A stretch of 64,000 nt of DNA. It comes from Gloeobacterales cyanobacterium (lineage in GTDB: Bacteria; Cyanobacteriota; Cyanobacteriia; Gloeobacterales; PMM-0068). The stretch covers positions 11,110 through 75,109 of the forward strand of contig JBBRSB010000005.1 in NCBI GenBank assembly GCA_038245785.1, read 5' to 3'. The notes beneath the pieces were generated by a model that did no database searches, was not told the origin of the DNA, and saw nothing but the letters and a program-made list of their open reading frames with translations. Below are positions 1,983 through 13,036 of the stretch, piece after piece; position 1 is the first letter of the stretch; each line of letters opens with the position of its first letter. The translations under genes and the position numbers were made by a program.

Positions 1983-4900
1983 ATGGCGATTAAGGCAACG
2001 AGTGGCAGCAATGTAGCCCGCCCCCGCAGATTCAACACGGTAATGGTAGAAACCATTGATGGAGCCTGTACCGAGGATCGGTATTTTAGCTCTGGTGAGT
2101 TGGAGTCCATGAAGGGCTACTTCAACGAAGCCCAAAAGCGGCTTGCAGTCTCACAAATTATCATTAGCAATGCGGAATCCATCGTCTCTAGAGCGGCCAC
2201 CCGGATTTTCCAGGGAGGCTCTCCCATGGCCTACGCTCCCCAGCAGATGCAGCGCTCCAAAGAAACCGTGGGTATTGGTGGACGCAAGCGGAATGAAGCG
2301 CCTGAAGGTACTACTGGATTTGGAGATGAGGTGGTTATTGAGGACCGGGGCGGCTTCCTGGAACGACTCAAATCCCTCTTTGCCAGCAGTGGGGAAACGA
2401 TCACAGCGTCTAACTTCCAACCGATCAAGATCGCTCTGTATGGTGCAGAGCGGATGCAAAAATCTCTGAGAGATTTGGATTGGTTTCTACGCTATGTGAA
2501 CTATGCTCTGTTGGCTGGTGATTTAAATATCCTGGAACTCAACTGCATTGGCTTGCGGGAGATTTTAGAGAGAGCTTGTTCGATAGATGCCACGATTGTT
2601 GCGATTCAGGAGATGCGTCGGGCTTCATTGGGCTATTTGAAGACCCAAGACGATAAGACCTTAGTTGGCAGTTATTTCGATGTCATTGTTCGTTGTTTAG
2701 AAGCAGATAAGTCAGACAGCCCCGGCGATATTATTCGTCCGTCTACAACGGACCGTCCTGGTCTGCAATTGCCTTACATCTACGGGCTCGCTGGTCAGGC
2801 CAAGCGCAAGTTCCGGATTGATAGCACTACTACTGGTGAGCAGAAAGAGATTGCAATCAAAGCAGCCTATCGCCAAGTTTTTGAACGAGATATCAGAGCA
2901 CACTATGGCCAATCCGTTTCCGTCCCGGAATCCAAAGTCAAGAATGGTGAATTCTCAGTACGGGAATTTATCCGGAACTTGGGCAAATCAGAACTTTACC
3001 GCAAGCAGTTCTTTGAGCCTTTTATTGACTCTCGGGCGTTAGAACTAGCCTTTAAGCATTTCTTAGGACGCGCACCTGAATCCCGTGCGGAAGTTCAAAA
3101 TTACTTCTCGATCGTGGCTTCGGGCGGCCTATATGCTTTGGTCGATGCCCTAATCGATTCCGATGAGTACCAGCGCGTATTTGGCGAAGATATGGTTCCC
3201 TACATTCGCGATTTGGGGCAGGAAGCGCAACCCTCCTGGAACTGGGGTGCTGCCTACAACCTCTACAACTACGCTGCACCGCGCCGTAAAGTCCCTGAAT
3301 TTATTACGCTGTTTGCGGACTACACCAACAATTTGCCTAACCAGCATCCCTATGGCGCAGGTAATGACCCCTTAGAAATTCAATTTGGGGCTATTTTCAA
3401 CAAAGAGAATAAGAACTTAAATAGCCGTCCTGCCTTGATTGGAAAAGATGTTCAGCGCATCTTGATCCGTACGGGTATTCCTTTTGAGAACGAACGAGGG
3501 ACGAAAGACTTTACACCGGCGAAGGAATCTACCCTCGGACCCAAGATTTTCAAACTCACTCAAAATGTCAGTCAGCGTTCCGGCACTATTGTTCGCAATG
3601 CGGGCATCGTCAACGTTGAAGGCAGTACTAAAGCTGTGATCCGGGCTGCTTATCTCCAAGTGTTTGGACGGGCAATTTACTCTGGACAAGAGCAAAGCGT
3701 CGCCGAAATCAAGCTGGAAAACGGTGAAATTTCTGTACGAGAATTTGTGCGCCGTATAGCGAAGTCAGATGTTTTCCGCAACCTCTATTGGACTCCGCTT
3801 TATGTCTGTAAGTCCATTGAGTATATCCACAAGCATTTGCTAGGCCGTCTCACCTATGGACGTCAGGAAACGAACAAATACTACGATATTGCCTTCAAGA
3901 AGGGCTTTTATGGGGTGGTGGATGCGATTATTGACTCGCCTGAATACGACGAGGTATACGGCGAAGATACAGTCCCCTATGAACGCTACGTCAGCCCGCG
4001 CGGTCTAGCGCTGCGTACTCTCCGGGGTGGCTCCATGCAGCAACCGATGGAGGCAAAAGCCAATCCGATGATGGATATGGTTATGGCTCGCGGAGTTGCG
4101 CCGTCACGCTCTCTCCCGTCCATTCAGGCCAGTATTAACCAAGGGGTTTCTCGCAAGCGCGACCAAACTAAGGTCTTCAAGTACACCAGTAATCTCACCC
4201 GGCCTGAGTTTGAGCAGTTGTTGCGTGCGGTCTACCGCCAAGTATTCGAACGGGATATGGACGGCTACCGCGTAAGCGCGAGCTTCAGTGAGCCTGAGTC
4301 TAAGCTTCGTAATGGTGAGATTTCGGTACGGGAGTTTGTCCGTCGTGTGGGTAGCTCGGAGCTATACCGCAAGCAATTCTTTGACCGCTATCCAAACACT
4401 CAAGTCACGGAAATAGGCTTGAAGCACTTCCTCGGTAGAGCAACCAAGGACCAGTTGGAGTTGGCTCGTCTCGGTAACATATTGGCTAAAGAAGGGTTCA
4501 AAGCCTTTGTCAGTGCGATTATTGATTCTCCTGAGTATGATGCTACCTTCGGTGAGGATGTAGTTCCTTATCGTCGCTTCCCAACCCTACCTGCGGCGAA
4601 CTTCCCGAACACAGAGACCTTATACGAACGTCAGACCTTCCAGACCAAGGCACTAGTCGTACCGAGCTTTACTACCTTGAAAGCACGTAGGGGCATGTCC
4701 ATGGATAAGATGCCGATGACGGAAAGTGCTTTGGCTGATCTTCAGAAGCATAAAACTCTGATTGACCCGACCAAGCCGCGCTATCTGGAATTGGGTAAAT
4801 CTCTCAGAGAAGGGGGAGATGATTACACCGTTGGAGCTCGTCGCAATCCTCTGCCTATCTACAGGCTCACGGACAACAGTGGCTATACCGATAAAGAGAT

Positions 4901-5369
4901 AGCGATTCGAGCGGCCTATCGTCAGGTCTTCGAGCGAGATCTTCCTGAAGGTCTACGCCTATCAAAACCAGAATCTCGTCTCAAGAATGGTGAAATTAAC
5001 GTTCGGGAATTTATCCGTGCTTTGGGTAAATCCGATACCTACCGCAAGCAATTCTTTGATCCTTATCCCAACACGAAGGTGACGGAGTTCAACTTCAAAC
5101 ACTTCTTGGGACGTGCACCTGCGACACAGGAAGAAATCCAACTCTATAACCGGATTTTTGCAACCCAGGGATTGGCTGCTGCTGTAGACGCCATGCTCGA
5201 CAGTGAGGAATATTTCGCAATCTTTGGCGAAAACGTTGTTCCGTACCGTCGTTATCCAACGCTGCCGATTGGGACCTACACAGGCTCGGTGGCGACCAAC
5301 GATGAGCTTATCCAGCAGTCTTGGTCTTCTCTGTCGCCTTCGTACCTCGGTTTTAGCTTTTCTCGTTAG
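1983..5369 (+). CDS. apcE: phycobilisome core-membrane linker ApcE (LCM) with four REP linker domains
   Basis: N-terminus MAIKATSGSNVARPR...SRAATRIFQGGSPMAY is phycobiliprotein-like and carries an inserted loop. LRDLDWFLRYVNYALLAGD and ERACS (chromophore Cys region) follow. Four linker repeats are each marked by AAYRQVFERD / NGEISVREF / KHFLGR / GEDxVPY. Confidence 0.95.
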   Translation: MAIKATSGSNVARPRRFNTVMVETIDGACTEDRYFSSGELESMKGYFNEAQKRLAVSQIIISNAESIVSRAATRIFQGGSPMAYAPQQMQRSKETVGIGGRKRNEAPEGTTGFGDEVVIEDRGGFLERLKSLFASSGETITASNFQPIKIALYGAERMQKSLRDLDWFLRYVNYALLAGDLNILELNCIGLREILERACSIDATIVAIQEMRRASLGYLKTQDDKTLVGSYFDVIVRCLEADKSDSPGDIIRPSTTDRPGLQLPYIYGLAGQAKRKFRIDSTTTGEQKEIAIKAAYRQVFERDIRAHYGQSVSVPESKVKNGEFSVREFIRNLGKSELYRKQFFEPFIDSRALELAFKHFLGRAPESRAEVQNYFSIVASGGLYALVDALIDSDEYQRVFGEDMVPYIRDLGQEAQPSWNWGAAYNLYNYAAPRRKVPEFITLFADYTNNLPNQHPYGAGNDPLEIQFGAIFNKENKNLNSRPALIGKDVQRILIRTGIPFENERGTKDFTPAKESTLGPKIFKLTQNVSQRSGTIVRNAGIVNVEGSTKAVIRAAYLQVFGRAIYSGQEQSVAEIKLENGEISVREFVRRIAKSDVFRNLYWTPLYVCKSIEYIHKHLLGRLTYGRQETNKYYDIAFKKGFYGVVDAIIDSPEYDEVYGEDTVPYERYVSPRGLALRTLRGGSMQQPMEAKANPMMDMVMARGVAPSRSLPSIQASINQGVSRKRDQTKVFKYTSNLTRPEFEQLLRAVYRQVFERDMDGYRVSASFSEPESKLRNGEISVREFVRRVGSSELYRKQFFDRYPNTQVTEIGLKHFLGRATKDQLELARLGNILAKEGFKAFVSAIIDSPEYDATFGEDVVPYRRFPTLPAANFPNTETLYERQTFQTKALVVPSFTTLKARRGMSMDKMPMTESALADLQKHKTLIDPTKPRYLELGKSLREGGDDYTVGARRNPLPIYRLTDNSGYTDKEIAIRAAYRQVFERDLPEGLRLSKPESRLKNGEINVREFIRALGKSDTYRKQFFDPYPNTKVTEFNFKHFLGRAPATQEEIQLYNRIFATQGLAAAVDAMLDSEEYFAIFGENVVPYRRYPTLPIGTYTGSVATNDELIQQSWSSLSPSYLGFSFSR

Positions 5370-5377
5370 GGGTTCTT

Positions 5378-6712
5378 ATGCAGCCTATTGTTCTACGTAA
5401 ACTAACTCCCCGCCGCCCACTGGAAAGCCGTCCTCCCTTGAACAGCTACAATCAGGGCGTGGCGGTCTGGAAGGCCCTCGCGGGTACTCAATATGCCATT
5501 GAGAAAGCCCAGGACATGTCTAAACCGGCTCTGCGGTCTAATAACATAGGGGCCGTACCTGGAGGCCTTCAGGGTAAGCGGGCAGGAGGTAAATCTCAGC
5601 CAGGGAAAGTTTATCGCTTGAGTCCACAGCAGCCCAAAGCTGAGAAAGAAGCTGTCATCAAAGCGGTTTATCGTCAAGTGTTAGAAAGACCCTTGTTCGA
5701 TGGATTCCGCCTGAATGAACCAGAGTCTCGAGTAACCAATGGGGATATAACCGTCCGTGAGTTTGTCCGGGCTGTAGCGACTTCTGATGTCTATATCCGT
5801 CAGTTTTTTACCCGCTTCCCCAACACAAAAGTGGTTGAATATCTATTCAGACATCTCTTAGGGCGTGTGCCTCAAGACCAAGTTGAGCTGATTGCCTACC
5901 ATGATCTGCTGGCTAGAAAAGGTCTAAAAGCTGCTGTAGAGGCGATGATAAGCTCTACAGAGTACACGCAGGTATTTGGGGATGATACGGTCCCCTATCC
6001 TCGCTATACCTCTGATCCTAAGAATGGGTATACGGCTGGTGCTTATGCCGGAAGTATCCGGGTATTTAGCCAGCAGACCTTCCAAAATTCCACCGTCAAT
6101 TTTCCTAGTTTTGAGAATCCCCTTTTAGGCCTAGCACGCTATCAGGGACTTGATACGACTGGGAACCGGGTGCAACCTGCTCGCCCTCAACTAGATGCTC
6201 CTAGAATTTATTCCTTGGGTGACAACACAAAGGTTGAACTCATTTTGCGGGCTGCTTATAAACAGGTCTGGGAGAAGGATTTAGGTGAAGCTCCTCGACT
6301 AAATGAACCCGAATCTCGCCTCCGCAATGGGGATATTACTGTCAAGGAATTTATTCGGGCCTTAGGACATTCCGATTTTTATCTTCGAACCTATCTCGGT
6401 AAGTGGGATAATTCCAAGCTGGCGGAATTTAACTTTAAGCACTTCCTAGGCCGTCGTCCCGCTTCTACCCAGGAGCTTGCACAACATACCCAAACCTTGG
6501 GTCAGCGCGGTCTGAAAGCTGCTATCGATGAACTGTTGAATAGTGCTGAATACCGGAAAAACTTTGGAGACAACACTGTGCCCTATAGTACGCTGCGGTC
6601 TGAGCGCTATGTCGGCACTGTGGACCAACCGTCTCGCGCCTATGCCGGGACCTTCTCACAGGTACGTGAGCAGTACCACAAGAACACTACCCCTGCCTAT
6701 GAAAACCTATGA
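5378..6712 (+). CDS. free phycobilisome linker with two REP (PF00427-type) domains, ApcE REP3-REP4-like
   Basis: Two copies of the linker signature are present. The first is VYRQVLERP..NGDITVREFVRA..FRHLLGR..GDDTVPY and the second is AYKQVWEKD..NGDITVKEFIRA..FKHFLGR..GDNTVPY. They are preceded by a basic arm-like N-terminus. The start lies 8 nt after the apcE stop. Confidence 0.85.
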   Translation: MQPIVLRKLTPRRPLESRPPLNSYNQGVAVWKALAGTQYAIEKAQDMSKPALRSNNIGAVPGGLQGKRAGGKSQPGKVYRLSPQQPKAEKEAVIKAVYRQVLERPLFDGFRLNEPESRVTNGDITVREFVRAVATSDVYIRQFFTRFPNTKVVEYLFRHLLGRVPQDQVELIAYHDLLARKGLKAAVEAMISSTEYTQVFGDDTVPYPRYTSDPKNGYTAGAYAGSIRVFSQQTFQNSTVNFPSFENPLLGLARYQGLDTTGNRVQPARPQLDAPRIYSLGDNTKVELILRAAYKQVWEKDLGEAPRLNEPESRLRNGDITVKEFIRALGHSDFYLRTYLGKWDNSKLAEFNFKHFLGRRPASTQELAQHTQTLGQRGLKAAIDELLNSAEYRKNFGDNTVPYSTLRSERYVGTVDQPSRAYAGTFSQVREQYHKNTTPAYENL

Positions 6713-6878: not shown

Positions 6879-7364
6879 ATGAGCGTCGTTACTAAAGCGA
6901 TCGTCAATGCTGATGCCGAAGCCCGCTACCTGAGCCCCGGCGAACTAGATCGGATCCGCTCTTTCACCTCTAGTGGTGAGCGCCGTCTTCGCATTGCACA
7001 GACCCTGACCGAAGCCCGTGAGCGTATCGTCAAGCAAGGTGGAGACCAACTCTTCCAGAAGCGCCCTGATGTCGTTTCCCCCGGTGGTAACGCTTATGGT
7101 TCTGAGAAGACCGCTACCTGCCTACGTGACATGGACTACTATCTCCGTCTAATCACCTTCGGAATTGCTGCTGGTGACGTAACTCCCATTGAAGAAATCG
7201 GAGTTATCGGAGCTAAGGAAATGTATCGTTCCTTGGAAGTGCCTCTGCCTGGTATGGCTGAGTCTATCCGTGCCATGAAGCAAGTGGCTACCGGTCTTCT
7301 GTCCGGCGAAGATGCCACTGAAGCTGGCTACTACTTCGATTACCTGGCTGGTGCTTTAGGTTAA
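6879..7364 (+). CDS. apcA: allophycocyanin alpha subunit
   Basis: [26 protein letters not shown]...[32 protein letters not shown]; 161 aa; AGGAGG RBS upstream. Confidence 0.95.
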
Positions 7365-7414
7365 TTGCCTGCCAGCCCTCCTACATAACGAGAACCACTT
7401 GGGAGTTTTAAACC

Positions 7415-7903
7415 ATGCAAGATGCAGTAACTTCTGTAATCAATACCTATGATGTTCAGGGCAAGTACCTAGACACCAGCGCCATCGATAAGTTGAAGTC
7501 CTACTTCGCTACCGGTGAGCTGCGCGTTCGTGCTGCTGCTACCATCTCTGCCAACGCTTCTTCGATCATCAAAGAGTCTGTGGCTAAATTGTTCGGTGAG
7601 CAGCCTGACCTCGTCCGCCCCGGCGGAAATGCTTACACCACCCGTCGCTATGCTGCTTGCATCCGCGACCAAGACTACTTCCTACGCTATGCTACCTACG
7701 CTATGTTGGCTGGAGACCCCTCCATCCTTGATGAGCGTGTGCTGAATGGCCTTAAGGAAACCTACAACTCCTTAGGAGTGCCCATTGCTTCTTCTGTAAA
7801 GGGGATTCAATCGCTCAAAGAAGTAGTAGCTAGCTTGGTTGGTCCTGATGCCGGTAAAGAGATGGGAGTCTACTTCGACTATCTGTCCTCTGGGTTGGGC
7901 TAA
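7415..7903 (+). CDS. apcB: allophycocyanin beta subunit
   Basis: [20 protein letters not shown]...[56 protein letters not shown]; 161 aa. Confidence 0.95.
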
Positions 7904-8005: not shown

Positions 8006-8209
8006 ATGAGCCGCCAAGTGCGTATCACGGCCATCTTGCCTCGCCGTGCCCAGGGAGTGGATACGGGCCGTGAAATTCAAAACGTCTATTTCACAAAGAA
8101 AGTTAGCTACGACCAGTGGACTCCAGAGATGCTCCGCATTGGCCGCCAGGGCGGGCGAATCCTAAAAGTGGAAGTAATGGGCAGTGGAGACACAGCGCTC
8201 AATCTGTGA
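8006..8209 (+). CDS. divergent ApcC-like small core linker (CpcD-domain protein)
   Basis: MSRQVRITAILPRRAQGVDTGREIQNVYFTKKVSYDQWTPEMLRIGRQGGRILKVEV aligns by eye with the canonical ApcC pattern (REhQNxYFTK...GGKIxKVE). AGGAGA RBS. Confidence 0.8.
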   Translation: MSRQVRITAILPRRAQGVDTGREIQNVYFTKKVSYDQWTPEMLRIGRQGGRILKVEVMGSGDTALNL

Positions 8210-8288: not shown

Positions 8289-8498
8289 ATGAGTCGCTTA
8301 TTTAAACTAACTGCCTGTGTACCTTCTAAAGCAAGAGTCCGCACGGCACGTGAACTGCAAAATACCTATTTCACAAAATTAGTGGAATACGACCGCATGT
8401 ACCCAGAAATGCAGCGTATCTCTCGCCAGGGTGGAAAAATCATCAAGGTTGAGCTATATGCGGGCCGCCCTGGACAAAATGCAGGCGTTGTCGGCTAA
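8289..8498 (+). CDS. apcC: phycobilisome small core linker ApcC (LC7.8)
   Basis: MSRLFKLTACVPSKARVRTARELQNTYFTKLVEYDRMYPEMQRISRQGGKIIKVEL is canonical ApcC. Start moved from the track start (8268) to the ATG at 8289, which gives the usual N-terminus. Confidence 0.9.
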   Translation: MSRLFKLTACVPSKARVRTARELQNTYFTKLVEYDRMYPEMQRISRQGGKIIKVELYAGRPGQNAGVVG

Positions 8499-8582: not shown

Positions 8583-10505
8583 TCAACTAGAAAAATAGAG
8601 CTTCAGCACAGTTGGGTCCAAGCTGTGAACAACTTTGATCTCTGGCAAACTTTGGCTGAGCGTTTTGCCATAGCCTTTGCGGGTCATCCGTGGATCTAAG
8701 ATAGCAACCACACCCCGATCCTGACGAGAACGAATTAATCTACCAAAACCCTGTTTCAGCCGCAGGGATGCGTAGGGTAACGCGAGGGCTGTGAACCAAG
8801 CCCAGGTATCTCCACCCTGCTTGAGCTGTTCACAACGGGCATCATATACAGGGTCTCCGGGAGATTGAAACGGAATCCGGTCAATAATCACCAAGCTGAG
8901 CTGAGGGCCATCTACGGAAACCCCTTCCCAGAAACTATTGGTGGCAAAAAGGACAGGATTGGGAGTAGAGCGAAACCATTCCAAAAGTTGGCGCTTCGGC
9001 ATCTGTTTTTGATGGTGACTGGGCCAGAGAATTTTTTCGGACAACGCCTCATAGCACTGCAGCATGGCTCCCATGGAAGTAAATAAAACAAACGCCCGTC
9101 CTTGAGAAAGATTGACCAATTTCTCTACTTCTAAAGCGACCTGTTCATTAAAGGCTGGTTGATTGGGGTCTGGTAGATGACGAGGTAAATAGAGCAGAGC
9201 CTGTTCTTTAAAGTTAAAGGGACTGCTAAATTTGAGCTCTAGAGCCTTCTGCGGTTCCAGCCCTACTTGCACCCGGAAATAAGCAAAGGGGTCACTTCCT
9301 CCAGTTGTTAAAGTGGCAGAAGTCCAGACACTGGTCGGGCTGTCCTCTGAGAAAAACCAGCTTTGTAGTTGAGAAGCCAGGTCTAAGGGCGCACTCGAAA
9401 ATGCAGCTTTGGTTCCAGTCCGAGTAGATTCTGTTTGTTGCCAGCTTACCCACTGGGGAGAGGGATGCATCAGTAAGTGGAGATGCCCCAAATAGCCTGC
9501 CAGGATGTCTGACAATCGGTCTCTACGCATCAGAGAGACGGCACTTTCTAGATTCTTTTCCTCGTCTTTCTCCTTAAGGTTGAGGCTCAGGAGATTTTTC
9601 TGGAGGGCCGTAATTTTTTGGTGAAGATGCGCTAAGTCTAATTGGTCAGGGTCCAAGCTCCGGCTACTGGGATTTTCTAACACTCTCGCGAAGACTTGAT
9701 TCGCTATCTGCTCAACCGCTACTCTGGCAAGCTCTACTTGCGCAAACTGCTTACGAATCCGCTTCAACGTCCTTCTAAGACCAAAGTTGCTAAATTCCAG
9801 CGTAAGGGTTCGGGTCGCATACTCAGCAAACTGATGGGCTTCATCCACTACCAAAAAGTCATAGGGTGGCAGCAGTTGGCGGCTGGTGGCCCAATCCATA
9901 AGGAGCAGGGCATGGTTCGTCACGAGAATCTGTGTCTGGGCCAGATTGCGTCGTGACTGAAAGTAAAAACACTCGCTAAAGTGTGGGCAGCGTTCCCGCA
10001 GACAATCATCGCCATCGGAGCGCACTTCATCCCACAGTTCGGGAGAGGGTTGAACCTTGAGCTCAGACCAGTCTCCTTCTAGAGAAGTGTCTACCCAAGT
10101 TCTAAATTCTTCTGGCGTCGCTTGGGCCAGCAAATATTCATCCCAACGACGCTTAGAAAGATAGTGCCCTCGACCTTTAACTAATTGGGCCGTAAAAGGG
10201 ATGCCCAAGGCTTTTTGCAGGAGAGGAATATCTTTGTAGAGATACTGTTCCTGAAGTGCGATGGTCGCTGTAGAGATAACGACCCTCTTGCCCGTGAGGA
10301 CGGCAGGGACCAGAGCCGCAAAGCTTTTCCCTGTGCCCGTTCCTGCTTCTGCGACTACAGGCATTTTTTCGGCAAAGCCCCGGTGGATAGCCCGAGCCAT
10401 TTCCAATTGAGCGGCCCGCACTTCGTACCCAGACAGAGCCCCAGCTATTTTGGTAAAAGCTTGATCAAGGGAGAGGAGCGGCTGGGAATGTGCAGAAGAT
10501 GACAC
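8583..10505 (-). CDS. dinG: DinG/Rad3-family ATP-dependent DNA helicase
   Basis: Walker A AEAGTGTGKSFA, DEAH box VVDEAHQF, a Cys cluster DDCLRERCPHFSECFYF (FeS domain), and C-terminal helicase motifs FGRLIR. Confidence 0.85.
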   Translation of the reverse strand: MSSSAHSQPLLSLDQAFTKIAGALSGYEVRAAQLEMARAIHRGFAEKMPVVAEAGTGTGKSFAALVPAVLTGKRVVISTATIALQEQYLYKDIPLLQKALGIPFTAQLVKGRGHYLSKRRWDEYLLAQATPEEFRTWVDTSLEGDWSELKVQPSPELWDEVRSDGDDCLRERCPHFSECFYFQSRRNLAQTQILVTNHALLLMDWATSRQLLPPYDFLVVDEAHQFAEYATRTLTLEFSNFGLRRTLKRIRKQFAQVELARVAVEQIANQVFARVLENPSSRSLDPDQLDLAHLHQKITALQKNLLSLNLKEKDEEKNLESAVSLMRRDRLSDILAGYLGHLHLLMHPSPQWVSWQQTESTRTGTKAAFSSAPLDLASQLQSWFFSEDSPTSVWTSATLTTGGSDPFAYFRVQVGLEPQKALELKFSSPFNFKEQALLYLPRHLPDPNQPAFNEQVALEVEKLVNLSQGRAFVLFTSMGAMLQCYEALSEKILWPSHHQKQMPKRQLLEWFRSTPNPVLFATNSFWEGVSVDGPQLSLVIIDRIPFQSPGDPVYDARCEQLKQGGDTWAWFTALALPYASLRLKQGFGRLIRSRQDRGVVAILDPRMTRKGYGKTLSQSLPEIKVVHSLDPTVLKLYFSS

Positions 10506-10994
10506 AGAATCATGTAGATATCTTCATTCATGATGCTATAAATAAAGGCTAATTGCTTGTTCTTCAGTAATTCTCTGGATGTTCGATGTTACCTTTCTAA
10601 AGAGATATGTATTTCAAGGATGAATCGTTATAAAACGTAACAAGTCAATTCTCCACTTATACGTTCCTGTCCCTCTCAAAAAAAATGGATGTATAAACCC
10701 TGAAAGCCGCTATTCTAATAGAATCTAGCTCGGCCATGTACCCTGAGATAGTAACAGTGACAAGGCCCTGACAAAGTGGCGCACAACAGGAACTCCTTCT
10801 TGTCAGGATTAAGCCCTGATAGGAATGTAAGTCCTACGTTGACTTTGGAGAAGGGCAGTGTTATCAGAGTTAGAGGAAAACTTAAGTTGTTCTTTAATTA
10901 GAACGATTCCAAGTAGACCCCTCATGGCGTCATTCTGTGTTATCACATATGCGCCAGAAAGTTGACGTTTTTCAGTCAGGAGTCCCCACAAATT

Positions 10995-11480
10995 ATGAGT
11001 GCTATCACCAAAGCTGTCCTGAACGCGGATGCTGAAGCCCGCTACTTGAGCCCTGGAGAATTGGATGTAATCCGTACCTATCTGCAATCTGGAGAGCGTC
11101 GTGTGCGCGTAGCCCGTGCACTGGCCGAGAATGCCCAAAAGATTGTCAGAGCAGCCGGAGATCAGCTATTCCAGAAGCGACCTGATATTGTTTCTCCCGG
11201 TGGCAATGCCTTCGGTGAAGTAAGAACTGCCAAGTGTCTACGTGATATGGATTATTTTCTTCGCATGATCGCCTATGGCGTTCTTGCTGGAGATACTGCT
11301 CCGATTGATGAAATTTGTTTGATTGGCATCAAGGAAACGTATCGTCTTCTAGAAGTCCCAGTCCCTCCTACGGTTGAAGGCATCAAGAACATGAAGGCCC
11401 AAGCCGTAAGCATGATGTCTGGAGACGATGCCGCAGAAGCTGGCTTCTACTTCGATTACGTCATTAGCGCAATGTCTTAA
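10995..11480 (+). CDS. second allophycocyanin alpha-type subunit (ApcA paralog)
   Basis: [26 protein letters not shown]...[35 protein letters not shown]; 161 aa. Start set at the ATG 12 nt after the CAGGAG RBS rather than the track TTG at 10962. Confidence 0.9.
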   Translation: MSAITKAVLNADAEARYLSPGELDVIRTYLQSGERRVRVARALAENAQKIVRAAGDQLFQKRPDIVSPGGNAFGEVRTAKCLRDMDYFLRMIAYGVLAGDTAPIDEICLIGIKETYRLLEVPVPPTVEGIKNMKAQAVSMMSGDDAAEAGFYFDYVISAMS

Positions 11481-11542
11481 TAACATGCCGTACATCCCTC
11501 GCGGAATGCGGTGCTAAAAAAACTACAAGGAGAACCTTCCAT

Positions 11543-12034
11543 ATGGCAATCGATGCAGTCACCCGGGTAATCAACCGAACTGATTCCCAGGGTAAATATG
11601 CTCTAGGTGCAGACCTAGATGAAATCGCAAATTTCTTTAGCGGCGGAGAAGCACGCTTAAGAGCTGCTTCTGCAATCAGTGCGAATGCTTCTGCCATTCT
11701 GCGCCAATCTGTTTCCCGCCTGTTTAGTGAGCAGCCTGACTTGCTCCGTCCAGGTGGATATAGCTATACTTCTCGTCGCTATGCCGCCTGTGTGCGTGAT
11801 ATGGAGTATTTCCTGCGCTACACTTCCTATGCTTTGGTGGCTGGTGACACTTCCATCCTTGATGAGCGCGTGCTAAATGGCTTGAAAGAAACCTATACTT
11901 CTTTGGGCGTTCCTATCGCGTCTACCGTATCTGGTATCGCTGCCATGAAGAGTGTAGTCGCTGAGATGGTTGGTGGAGATGCCGCACAGCAAACCAACCG
12001 TTACTTCGACCATTTGGCTCAGGGGCTGGGCTAA
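11543..12034 (+). CDS. second allophycocyanin beta-type subunit (ApcB paralog) with GGYSY instead of GGNAY
   Basis: MAIDAVTRVINRTDSQGKY...[58 protein letters not shown]; AAGGAGA RBS. Confidence 0.9.
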   Translation: MAIDAVTRVINRTDSQGKYALGADLDEIANFFSGGEARLRAASAISANASAILRQSVSRLFSEQPDLLRPGGYSYTSRRYAACVRDMEYFLRYTSYALVAGDTSILDERVLNGLKETYTSLGVPIASTVSGIAAMKSVVAEMVGGDAAQQTNRYFDHLAQGLG

Positions 12035-12051
12035 AACTTTCTTACCTCTTG

Positions 12052-12078
12052 GAGGGCCTTGTTAGGCCCTCTTTTTTG
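12052..12078 (+). terminator. rho-independent terminator after the second apcAB pair
   Basis: gagggcc-ttgtta-ggccctc followed by ttttttg. Confidence 0.8.
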
Positions 12079-12664
12079 TTGGCTAGTATACGAAGGCCCA
12101 GGTCTCCCTTTTACTGCCTTCCTGGTACGCAAATCGGCTGATGTGTATGCCTTCCTTCGCTTTTATGTGGTTGTCACACGCTCATGCCCACCAAGATTGT
12201 TTCTAGGGCCTTGTAGGCAGAGTACATATCCCAAATAGTGTCTATTGTGCTCTAAACAGTGTCGAGACTTAGGACTAAATTGATAATTCATAGTCTTCCG
12301 AACTATTGTCAATTGGTTCCAGCCGAGTTCATTAGCCTATTGTCAGGGGCTGTCGAGAAGGTCCGAGTAGAAGGCTGGAGGAAATACCGACCCATCCTGA
12401 CAGAGTAAAGTCTAAAGCTTCTTTTAGGGCTAACAGAGGGTTATAGCCTCCATGAAATACTTACTTCGTAAGGAAACAATCTGAATGGTATTGGAGGTTT
12501 GATGTGCGTCTTGTAGGGAAACGTACATGCTCGTTAGAGAGAATCTCACTAAATCTCTGATAACCAAATTCAAAAAATAAGACAATTTATGGTCAGCATC
12601 TCAGAAGATCTATACAGATGATTCGATTGTCACTATACTGTGATTGTCGCTTAGGTAAAAATCC

Positions 12665-13036
12665 ATGGCTCCAGTAACTGGGAAAGATTTACTCAAAAAA
12701 GTTGAAGAACTCAAAGGTACTCCAAAGAAAGAAATGGCTCGTGCACTAGGTTTTGTATCCAAAACCAAAACGGGGCAGGAGCGGGTCAAACTTGCTTCTT
12801 TCATGAATGCTTTGTTGGAAGCAAAGGGTGTTGGCTTTGGTGGAAGTTCTGAGCGTGATGGACGGGGTGGACGCTCTGCCTCCTATCGCATCCAAGTTCA
12901 ACAAAATGGCAACTTGTTGGTGGGTGCAGCTTATACCCGTGAGATGGGTCTAGAGCCTGGTACAGAGTTTGAGATCCAACTGGGACGCAAACATATCAAA
13001 TTGGTCAAAGTCAATGGTGGTGATGGAGACGAGTAG
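12665..13036 (+). CDS. cyanobacterial AbrB-family transcriptional regulator (cyAbrB/CalA-type)
   Basis: N-terminus MAPVTGKDLLKKVEELKGTPKKEMARALGF and a C-terminal AbrB/SpoVT fold signature GNLLVGAAYTREMGLEPGTEFEIQLGRKHIKLV. Confidence 0.8.
   Translation: MAPVTGKDLLKKVEELKGTPKKEMARALGFVSKTKTGQERVKLASFMNALLEAKGVGFGGSSERDGRGGRSASYRIQVQQNGNLLVGAAYTREMGLEPGTEFEIQLGRKHIKLVKVNGGDGDE

Follow-up and report, generated by a model that had tools for sequence, protein, structure and literature searches.

What does a cyanobacterium do with a second pair of allophycocyanin genes, and what becomes of a beta subunit in which the asparagine that is methylated in nearly all of its relatives has been replaced by tyrosine? 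Both questions are raised by a locus in contig JBBRSB010000005.1 of a Gloeobacterales cyanobacterium (GCA_038245785.1; a 5.0 Mb genome, 98% complete, of family f1 in that order), of which we analysed a stretch of 64,000 nucleotides, called the window below. In addition to the main apc operon, the window carries a separate alpha-beta gene pair, here apcA1 and apcB1, whose beta product has Tyr at the consensus position beta-72 (Asn71 of allophycocyanin; we write Tyr72 throughout). The answer that we regard as fairly probable is that the pair encodes the ApcA1/ApcB1 of the top cylinders of a phycobilisome core and that Tyr72 would be an encoded stand-in for a methylated amide, with modest tuning of the bilin at most.

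Judged from their sequences, the two proteins are orthologs of ApcA1 and ApcB1 of Anthocerotibacter panamensis, a class already described. Among all PDB chains, the best match of ApcA1 is the A. panamensis ApcA1 (8imk_A, E 7e-81, vs 1e-67 for ApcA2) and that of ApcB1 is the ApcB1 of the same species (8imk_G, E 8e-72, vs 3e-61 for ApcB2). These matches rank above ApcA2/ApcB2, all crown ApcA and ApcB, ApcD, ApcF and the far-red subunits, and identity to the A. panamensis orthologs is 77% for ApcA1 and 72% for ApcB1. The ApcB1 clade has support of 99/96 in the maximum-likelihood beta tree, ApcA1 forms a clade of its own in the alpha tree, and 24 alignment positions separate the ApcB1 clade from all canonical ApcB. 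A first-pass annotation of this DNA, made from the letters alone, had said that the pair resembles neither ApcD nor ApcF, and the matches to both are indeed far weaker: an ApcF (beta-18) identity, which calls for about 169 residues and a C-terminal extension, was rejected on length (163 residues) and on E-values of 1e-48 or weaker, and an ApcD (alpha-AP-B) identity on E-values of 4e-50 or weaker. Both proteins match Pfam PF00502 over their full length. In NCBIfam they score best with the ApcA (233 bits) and ApcB (205.5 bits) models, in each case below the equivalog cut-off (270 and 228, respectively) that is passed by the operon copies (6879-7364 and 7415-7903). They are 62% (alpha) and 63% (beta) identical to those copies without gaps by BLASTP, close to the two-thirds that had been estimated by eye, and both keep the phycocyanobilin-binding Cys that had been pointed out at the same time (Cys81 in TAKC and Cys83 in YAAC).

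The place of such a pair is known from cryo-electron microscopy of A. panamensis, where the core is heptacylindrical and its two top cylinders are built of (ApcA1/ApcB1)3 trimers (Jiang et al. 2023, PMC10696076; PDB 8IMK). The core-core linker ApcH connects these cylinders to the pentacylindrical part, ApcC1 forms their cap, ApcA1/B1 and ApcA2/B2 occur together in one complex, and ApcA1 and ApcB1 branch apart from the ApcA/ApcD and ApcB/ApcF clades (PMC10696076). The present genes resemble those of A. panamensis in their orthologous clade, their arrangement as an alpha-beta bicistron, their bilin Cys and their companions: ApcH, ApcC1, ApcA2/B2 and ApcE are present (the ApcH and ApcC1 genes lie 3-6 kb upstream of the pair) and ApcD and ApcF are absent. 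There are also multiple differences. First, A. panamensis belongs to another family of Gloeobacterales. Second, its two loci are far apart, whereas here only 3.6 kb separate the pair from the apcE-apcH-apcA2B2-apcC1C2 operon. Third, its ApcB1 has Asn at beta-72 (GGNAY), in contrast to Tyr here (GGYSY), and the alpha subunit here has GGNAF. The annotation had listed this alpha change from GGNAY as well; the change is real but not special, as GGNAF is present in a crown ApcA too.

The original study reported ApcH only from Anthocerotibacter and Aurora (PMC10696076), and the ApcA1/ApcB1-ApcH-ApcC1 module is now extended to a third Gloeobacterales family. Neither Gloeobacter (f2) nor the family of Anthocerotibacter and Cyanaurora (f32) belongs to family f1; ApcB1 has orthologs in f1 and f32 and none in Gloeobacter. 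Judging by the genes, the heptacylindrical core probably has a wider distribution among cyanobacteria without thylakoids. The two trees give different pictures of the duplication: in the beta tree ApcB1 groups with ApcB2 of the same lineages (99/98), unlike ApcA1, which stands outside all ApcA in the alpha tree (90/83). As for the loop around beta-72, ApcB2 of f1 and of the Anthocerotibacter family has FxEQPDL[VL]RPGGNAY, a form common to ApcB1, ApcF and CpcB, and the loop of Gloeobacter and crown ApcB is one residue shorter (LYSD[IL]TRPGGNMY).

Methylation of the beta-72 Asn has been known for about 40 years. Canonical ApcB and CpcB carry gamma-N-methyl-Asn71/72; ApcB1 shares their fold and their loop motif with the bilin Cys (RPGG-x-x-YT-x-RRYAAC) but has Tyr in place of the methyl acceptor. 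In gapless register ApcB1 reads RPGGYSYTSRRYAAC and the operon ApcB keeps GGNAY in that segment, just as the annotation had described. The residue lost had been named there as the conserved CpcM-substrate Asn adjoining the beta bilin, and the aligned position agrees (beta-72/Asn71). The objection that had been foreseen, that an Asn might have shifted into register elsewhere, does not hold: because the alignment has no gaps and the Asn residues closest to the Tyr are N48 and N112, with none within 24 residues of it, a register shift cannot bring an Asn back. With Tyr and not Asn at the aligned position, ApcB1 cannot be a CpcM substrate at that site, and its beta-72 would be without methylation.

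What this may mean for the bilin is suggested by known structures. Crystal structures of allophycocyanin show the side chain of methyl-Asn71 in contact with the beta bilin (Odelta1 lies about 3 A from the pyrrole N), and Thr74 of the same loop touches the neighbouring alpha bilin (PMC4414346). Because of the first of these contacts (PMC4414346) it is plausible, by analogy, that Tyr alters the chromophore environment. Methyl-Asn is said to characterise nearly all beta subunits and to be needed if energy transfer is to be efficient, and far-red ApcB3 has kept a methylated Asn71 (PMC10038336); another study takes beta-18 to be methylated and Acaryochloris phycocyanin to lack the methylation (PMC12883523).

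A candidate for the methylating enzyme is encoded in the source genome, outside the window (G000:C33:49081-50313, minus strand). This CpcM-like gene adjoins cpcBA in divergent orientation, and its product of 411 residues, with a methyltransferase domain from about residue 55, is comparable to Sll0487 (402 residues, methyltransferase domain 58-155; PMC7801250). We read it as CpcM, with putative activity; NCBIfam has no CpcM model, and no curated model names the gene. It is single-copy in 95 of 101 genomes of the class, absent where ApcB is absent, and found in 13 of the 14 Gloeobacterales, Tyr-type lineages included. The protein of this genus is 67-77% identical to that of crown cyanobacteria and 45-56% to that of other Gloeobacterales, a pattern that could come from horizontal transfer or unequal rates.

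Tyr72 is a lineage variant rather than a defining trait of the pair, because the ApcB1 of A. panamensis has Asn. Four of the six Gloeobacterales species genomes with ApcB1 have Tyr, each with codon TAT (the present genome, G096, G102 or Cyanaurora, and G104), and the other two have Asn (AAC in G079, AAT in G101 or A. panamensis). A further 13 ApcB1 clusters from a 5.8-billion-protein collection are divided between Tyr (7) and Asn (6), with no other residue. At least four changes between Asn and Tyr are needed on the maximum-likelihood ApcB1 tree, three of them imposed by branches with strong support. For the genus, the species tree indicated by synonymous divergence (dS) is (present genome,(G096,G079)), on which Tyr is probably ancestral and the G079 lineage has returned to Asn; the direction of these changes rests on parsimony and dS. 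The return was accompanied by Ala82Val beside the bilin Cys and by other changes, on a branch whose ratio of nonsynonymous to synonymous substitution rates (dN/dS) is raised, at 0.27. Asn72 always occurs with Val82 (RRYVAC) and Tyr72 with Ala82 (RRYAAC) in this genus, and both residues line the bilin site. As a single evolutionary event, this linkage is no more than suggestive of compensation.

The same replacement is found in another paralog. A survey of beta-72 in 401 genomes spread over the class, with Lys codons left out, returned Tyr in 15 genomes (4 ApcB1 and 11 ApcF, the latter from three families), Ser in 3 (ApcF-like, one family) and His in 2 (phycoerythrin-beta-like, from small genomes); neither Asp, Thr or Ile at this position nor a bulk ApcB or CpcB without Asn was seen in it. 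Scanning metagenome contigs for the exact pattern PGG-Y-x-Y-x-x-RR-Y-x-x-C-x-RD gave 22 contigs, one with ApcB1 and 21 with ApcF (169 residues). These ApcF read RPGGYAYTTRRY(A/S)ACLRD, and their best PDB matches are ApcF chains, every one with Asn. Hosts of Tyr72 ApcF include Trichothermofontia, Leptodesmis, Leptothermofonsia sichuanensis, Romeriopsis navalis and Pantanalinema, from mixed habitats (hot springs, marine, alkaline lakes). Tyr72 ApcF (beta-18) is like ApcB1 in that Asn has given way to Tyr in the same loop of a specialised core beta subunit; it differs in being the other paralog, of 169 residues, which starts with MRDAVT and partners ApcE in the basal cylinders. On the sequence evidence, Tyr72 in ApcF arose independently of that in ApcB1. 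The literature searched yielded no ApcF or ApcB described with Tyr or Ser at beta-72, which is not proof of absence, and the Asn-to-Tyr change appears to be undescribed so far.

At an Asn site free of constraint, Tyr should be rarer than Asp, Ser, His or Thr. Because the only replacements in the survey were Tyr, Ser and His, we infer that the beta-72 site is still constrained and that Tyr is one of very few states allowed there. The Ser examples (GGS[A/G]) are in ApcF-like proteins of family f30 (G069:C1:1272909-1272956, G304:C1:1918124-1918171 and G111:C31:10564-10611), and the His examples (GGHCYPTRRMAACLRD) are in family f3, in genomes of 1.8-1.9 Mb (G070:C1:326975-327022 and G112:C1:1689891-1689938).

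Put together as a mechanism, the preferred reading runs as follows. (ApcA1/ApcB1)3 trimers would be stacked as two additional cylinders (D and D') on top of the pentacylindrical core, with the two-REP linker ApcH running through them, ApcC1 as their cap and one phycocyanobilin per subunit on the conserved Cys. These cylinders would give the antenna a larger cross-section for red light and pass excitation from phycocyanin on to the lower core. In ApcB1, Tyr would take the place of the gamma-N-methyl-Asn packed against the beta bilin, leaving no CpcM methylation there, and the CpcM-like gene would be kept for ApcB2 and CpcB, which retain Asn. The Tyr side chain would fill and desolvate the pocket of the N-methyl amide without an enzyme and would tune the beta bilin modestly at most.

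Multiple points weigh against this mechanism. First, a seven-cylinder core with the pair in its top tier is for this organism an argument by analogy, from orthology and the full list of parts; such a core is predicted here from its genes. Second, the CpcM identity derives solely from architecture, linkage and phyletic pattern, and the residue survey passed over Lys codons. Third, in an AlphaFold2 model of ApcB1 built from the clade alignment, the mean predicted local distance difference test score (pLDDT) is 82.8 and residues 73-75 fall below 50; because the loop scores low without a modelled bilin, the model is silent on the orientation of the Tyr. Fourth, the Asn and Tyr states do not co-vary consistently with other sites across the ApcB1 clade. 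Fifth, ApcA1 and ApcB1 evolve faster than the operon copies, so part of the change may reflect relaxed constraint. Within the genus, dN/dS is 0.05-0.22 for apcA1 and 0.07-0.27 for apcB1 (omega 0.27 in the G096-G079 comparison) vs 0-0.02 for apcA2/apcB2, which is 10-30 times faster. Values of this kind still describe functional genes, both under purifying selection.

The role of Tyr72 can be worded more specifically, and then we hold it only tentatively, as something short of probable: it may be a hard-wired replacement for methyl-Asn that evolved repeatedly in ApcB1 and ApcF and provides desolvated, rigid packing without CpcM, or else a deliberate retuning of the beta bilin at sub-complex junctions. 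As for what is observed, the replacement by Tyr occurs in nature, recurs, is under selection and stays within specialised core subunits, and it thereby marks where methylation is dispensable. The natural Asn/Tyr pairs, some of them within one genus, are natural mutants for probing the function of methylation; if the hard-wired replacement is true, they would offer a direct route to its purpose.

Two other explanations of Tyr72 have to be weighed, and we consider each of them unlikely, though not lightly set aside. In the first, near-neutral toggling, beta-72 would matter little in the top cylinders and in ApcF, and Asn and Tyr would drift with no link to methylation. Frequent switching among close relatives (at least 3-4 switches) fits this explanation, as do the 10-30 times higher dN/dS of apcB1 relative to apcB2, the failure to find a habitat or sequence correlate, and the A. 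panamensis phycobilisome, which works with Asn (PMC10696076). Neutrality, however, predicts Asp, Ser, His and Thr, and what is seen is Tyr, a disfavoured exchange, in 15 of the 20 non-Asn genomes, with no Asp, Thr or Ile and with Asn never lost in bulk ApcB or CpcB.

The second, doubtful to a like degree, is adaptive spectral tuning: Tyr72 would shift the beta bilin, together with the alpha/beta pair coupled across the trimer interface, in energy or lifetime, setting the energy step between top cylinders and lower core or, in ApcF, acting beside the ApcE emitter, and would be selected in light or temperature niches. The loop is well placed for this, as it contacts the beta bilin and, via Thr74, the neighbouring alpha bilin (PMC4414346), and the swap is limited to specialised positions (ApcB1 and ApcF). 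Genus g1 adds a perfect linkage of Tyr72 with Ala82 vs Asn72 with Val82, beside the bilin Cys, and protein change is faster on the switching lineage (the G096-G079 omega given above). But that linkage is a single evolutionary event, and the hosts of Tyr72 ApcF come from mixed habitats.

A different kind of alternative concerns the pair as a whole, which might be a conditionally expressed replacement antenna, like ApcD4/ApcB3 or ApcD2-5/ApcB2, that enters the same cylinders under special light. What speaks for it is the regulation of the locus. The pair is a separate transcription unit, apart from the main apc operon: the annotation had described a separate bicistron with its own ribosome-binding sites and a terminator after it, and the intact open reading frames, both Shine-Dalgarno sequences and a hairpin followed by a T-run were all located (Table 1). 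It had also noted an AT-rich region upstream, borne out by a GC content of about 0.40 at 10506-10994 vs about 0.50 in the genes, and had suggested independent regulation, an idea that gains support from the conserved, stably folding and genus-specific leader found in this region. Across three species with synonymous divergence of 0.3-0.5, the share of unchanged columns at 10745-10994 is 88-96%; this segment is more conserved than the synonymous sites of the genes, and its predicted fold (-77.8 kcal/mol, z = -3.5) is stabler than that of shuffled sequence. No Rfam family matches within 10450-12700, a scan for the sigma-70 consensus gave no plus-strand promoter upstream of apcA1, and the leader has no similarity to the regions upstream of apcA1 in Cyanaurora or Anthocerotibacter or of apcE and apcA2 in the window. 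It may be a structured 5' leader or regulatory element.

The conserved 250-nt leader and terminator do not make a replacement antenna likely, because ApcH and ApcC1 are encoded in the main, constitutive operon and both isoforms coexist in one A. panamensis complex. The far-red and low-light allophycocyanins (ApcD4/ApcB3; ApcD2,3,5/ApcB2) are similar in being extra alpha/beta paralogs apart from the main operon; they differ in that ApcB3 keeps a methylated Asn71 (PMC10038336), that similarity to them is much lower, and that a far-red gene context is missing here. A far-red allophycocyanin identity (ApcD2-5 with ApcB2/ApcB3) was accordingly rejected on its matches (ApcD5 4e-36, 8ddy_B 2.7e-42, vs 7e-81 and 8e-72) and on its neighbours, which are dinG, cyAbrB and lexA; no gene cluster for far-red or low-light photoacclimation (FaRLiP/LoLiP) is present in the window. 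We regard the replacement antenna as very improbable. Misassembly, sequencing error or a pair of pseudogenes in decay, for which the sub-cut-off NCBIfam scores and nothing else would speak, can be dismissed given the intact frames, the identical TAT codon in four species genomes and many independent metagenome contigs, the purifying selection on both genes and the conserved synteny.

Table 1. Features of the apcA1-apcB1 locus and of the neighbouring core genes (window coordinates).
Feature	Position	Strand	Remarks
apcE, core-membrane linker with four REP domains	1983..5369	+	
apcH, core-core linker	5378..6712	+	8imk_1 ApcH, E 5e-154, full length; two PF00427 domains
apcA2-apcB2, canonical pair, beta with GGNAY	6879..7903	+	NCBIfam ApcA and ApcB cut-offs passed
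apcC1-like small core linker, top-cylinder cap	8006..8209	+	8imk_M ApcC1 E 1.5e-19 vs ApcC2 1.9e-13
apcC, canonical (ApcC2-like)	8289..8498	+	
DinG/YoaA-type helicase gene	8583-10505	-	between the apc operon and apcA1-apcB1
Leader/regulatory region 5' of apcA1	10745..10994	+	conserved, probably structured
Shine-Dalgarno AGGAG	10978..10982	+	12 nt ahead of apcA1 ATG; read from the sequence
apcA1, alpha subunit of top-cylinder allophycocyanin	10995..11480	+	161 residues; GGNAF in place of GGNAY
apcA1 bilin Cys81 (TAKC)	11235-11237	+	
Shine-Dalgarno AAGGAG	11527..11532	+	10 nt ahead of apcB1 ATG; read from the sequence
apcB1, beta subunit of top-cylinder allophycocyanin	11543..12034	+	163 residues
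apcB1 Tyr73 codon TAT (own numbering), consensus beta-72, Asn71 of allophycocyanin	11759..11761	+	gapless alignments
apcB1 bilin Cys83 (YAAC)	11789-11791	+	
Intrinsic-terminator-like hairpin, then T-run	12051..12080	+	9 pairs, 6 GC; hairpin 12051-12072

The gene order of the window is repeated in a metagenome-assembled genome of the same genus, PMM_0068, and the alpha-beta pair stands alone in Cyanaurora and in one other Gloeobacterales metagenome-assembled genome. Downstream of apcB1, past a 585-bp spacer free of open reading frames, lies a gene for an AbrB-like (cyAbrB-type) regulator (12665-13036); the order of apcB1 and this gene is kept in the same-genus assembly. Elsewhere in the source genome, contig C22 has at about 56.6-57.5 kb a divergent pair of phycobiliprotein-like open reading frames (155 and 154 residues; PF00502 at 73 and 29 bits), which lies between two related open reading frames of about 220 residues and downstream of one of 160 residues with a ferredoxin-like Cys cluster.

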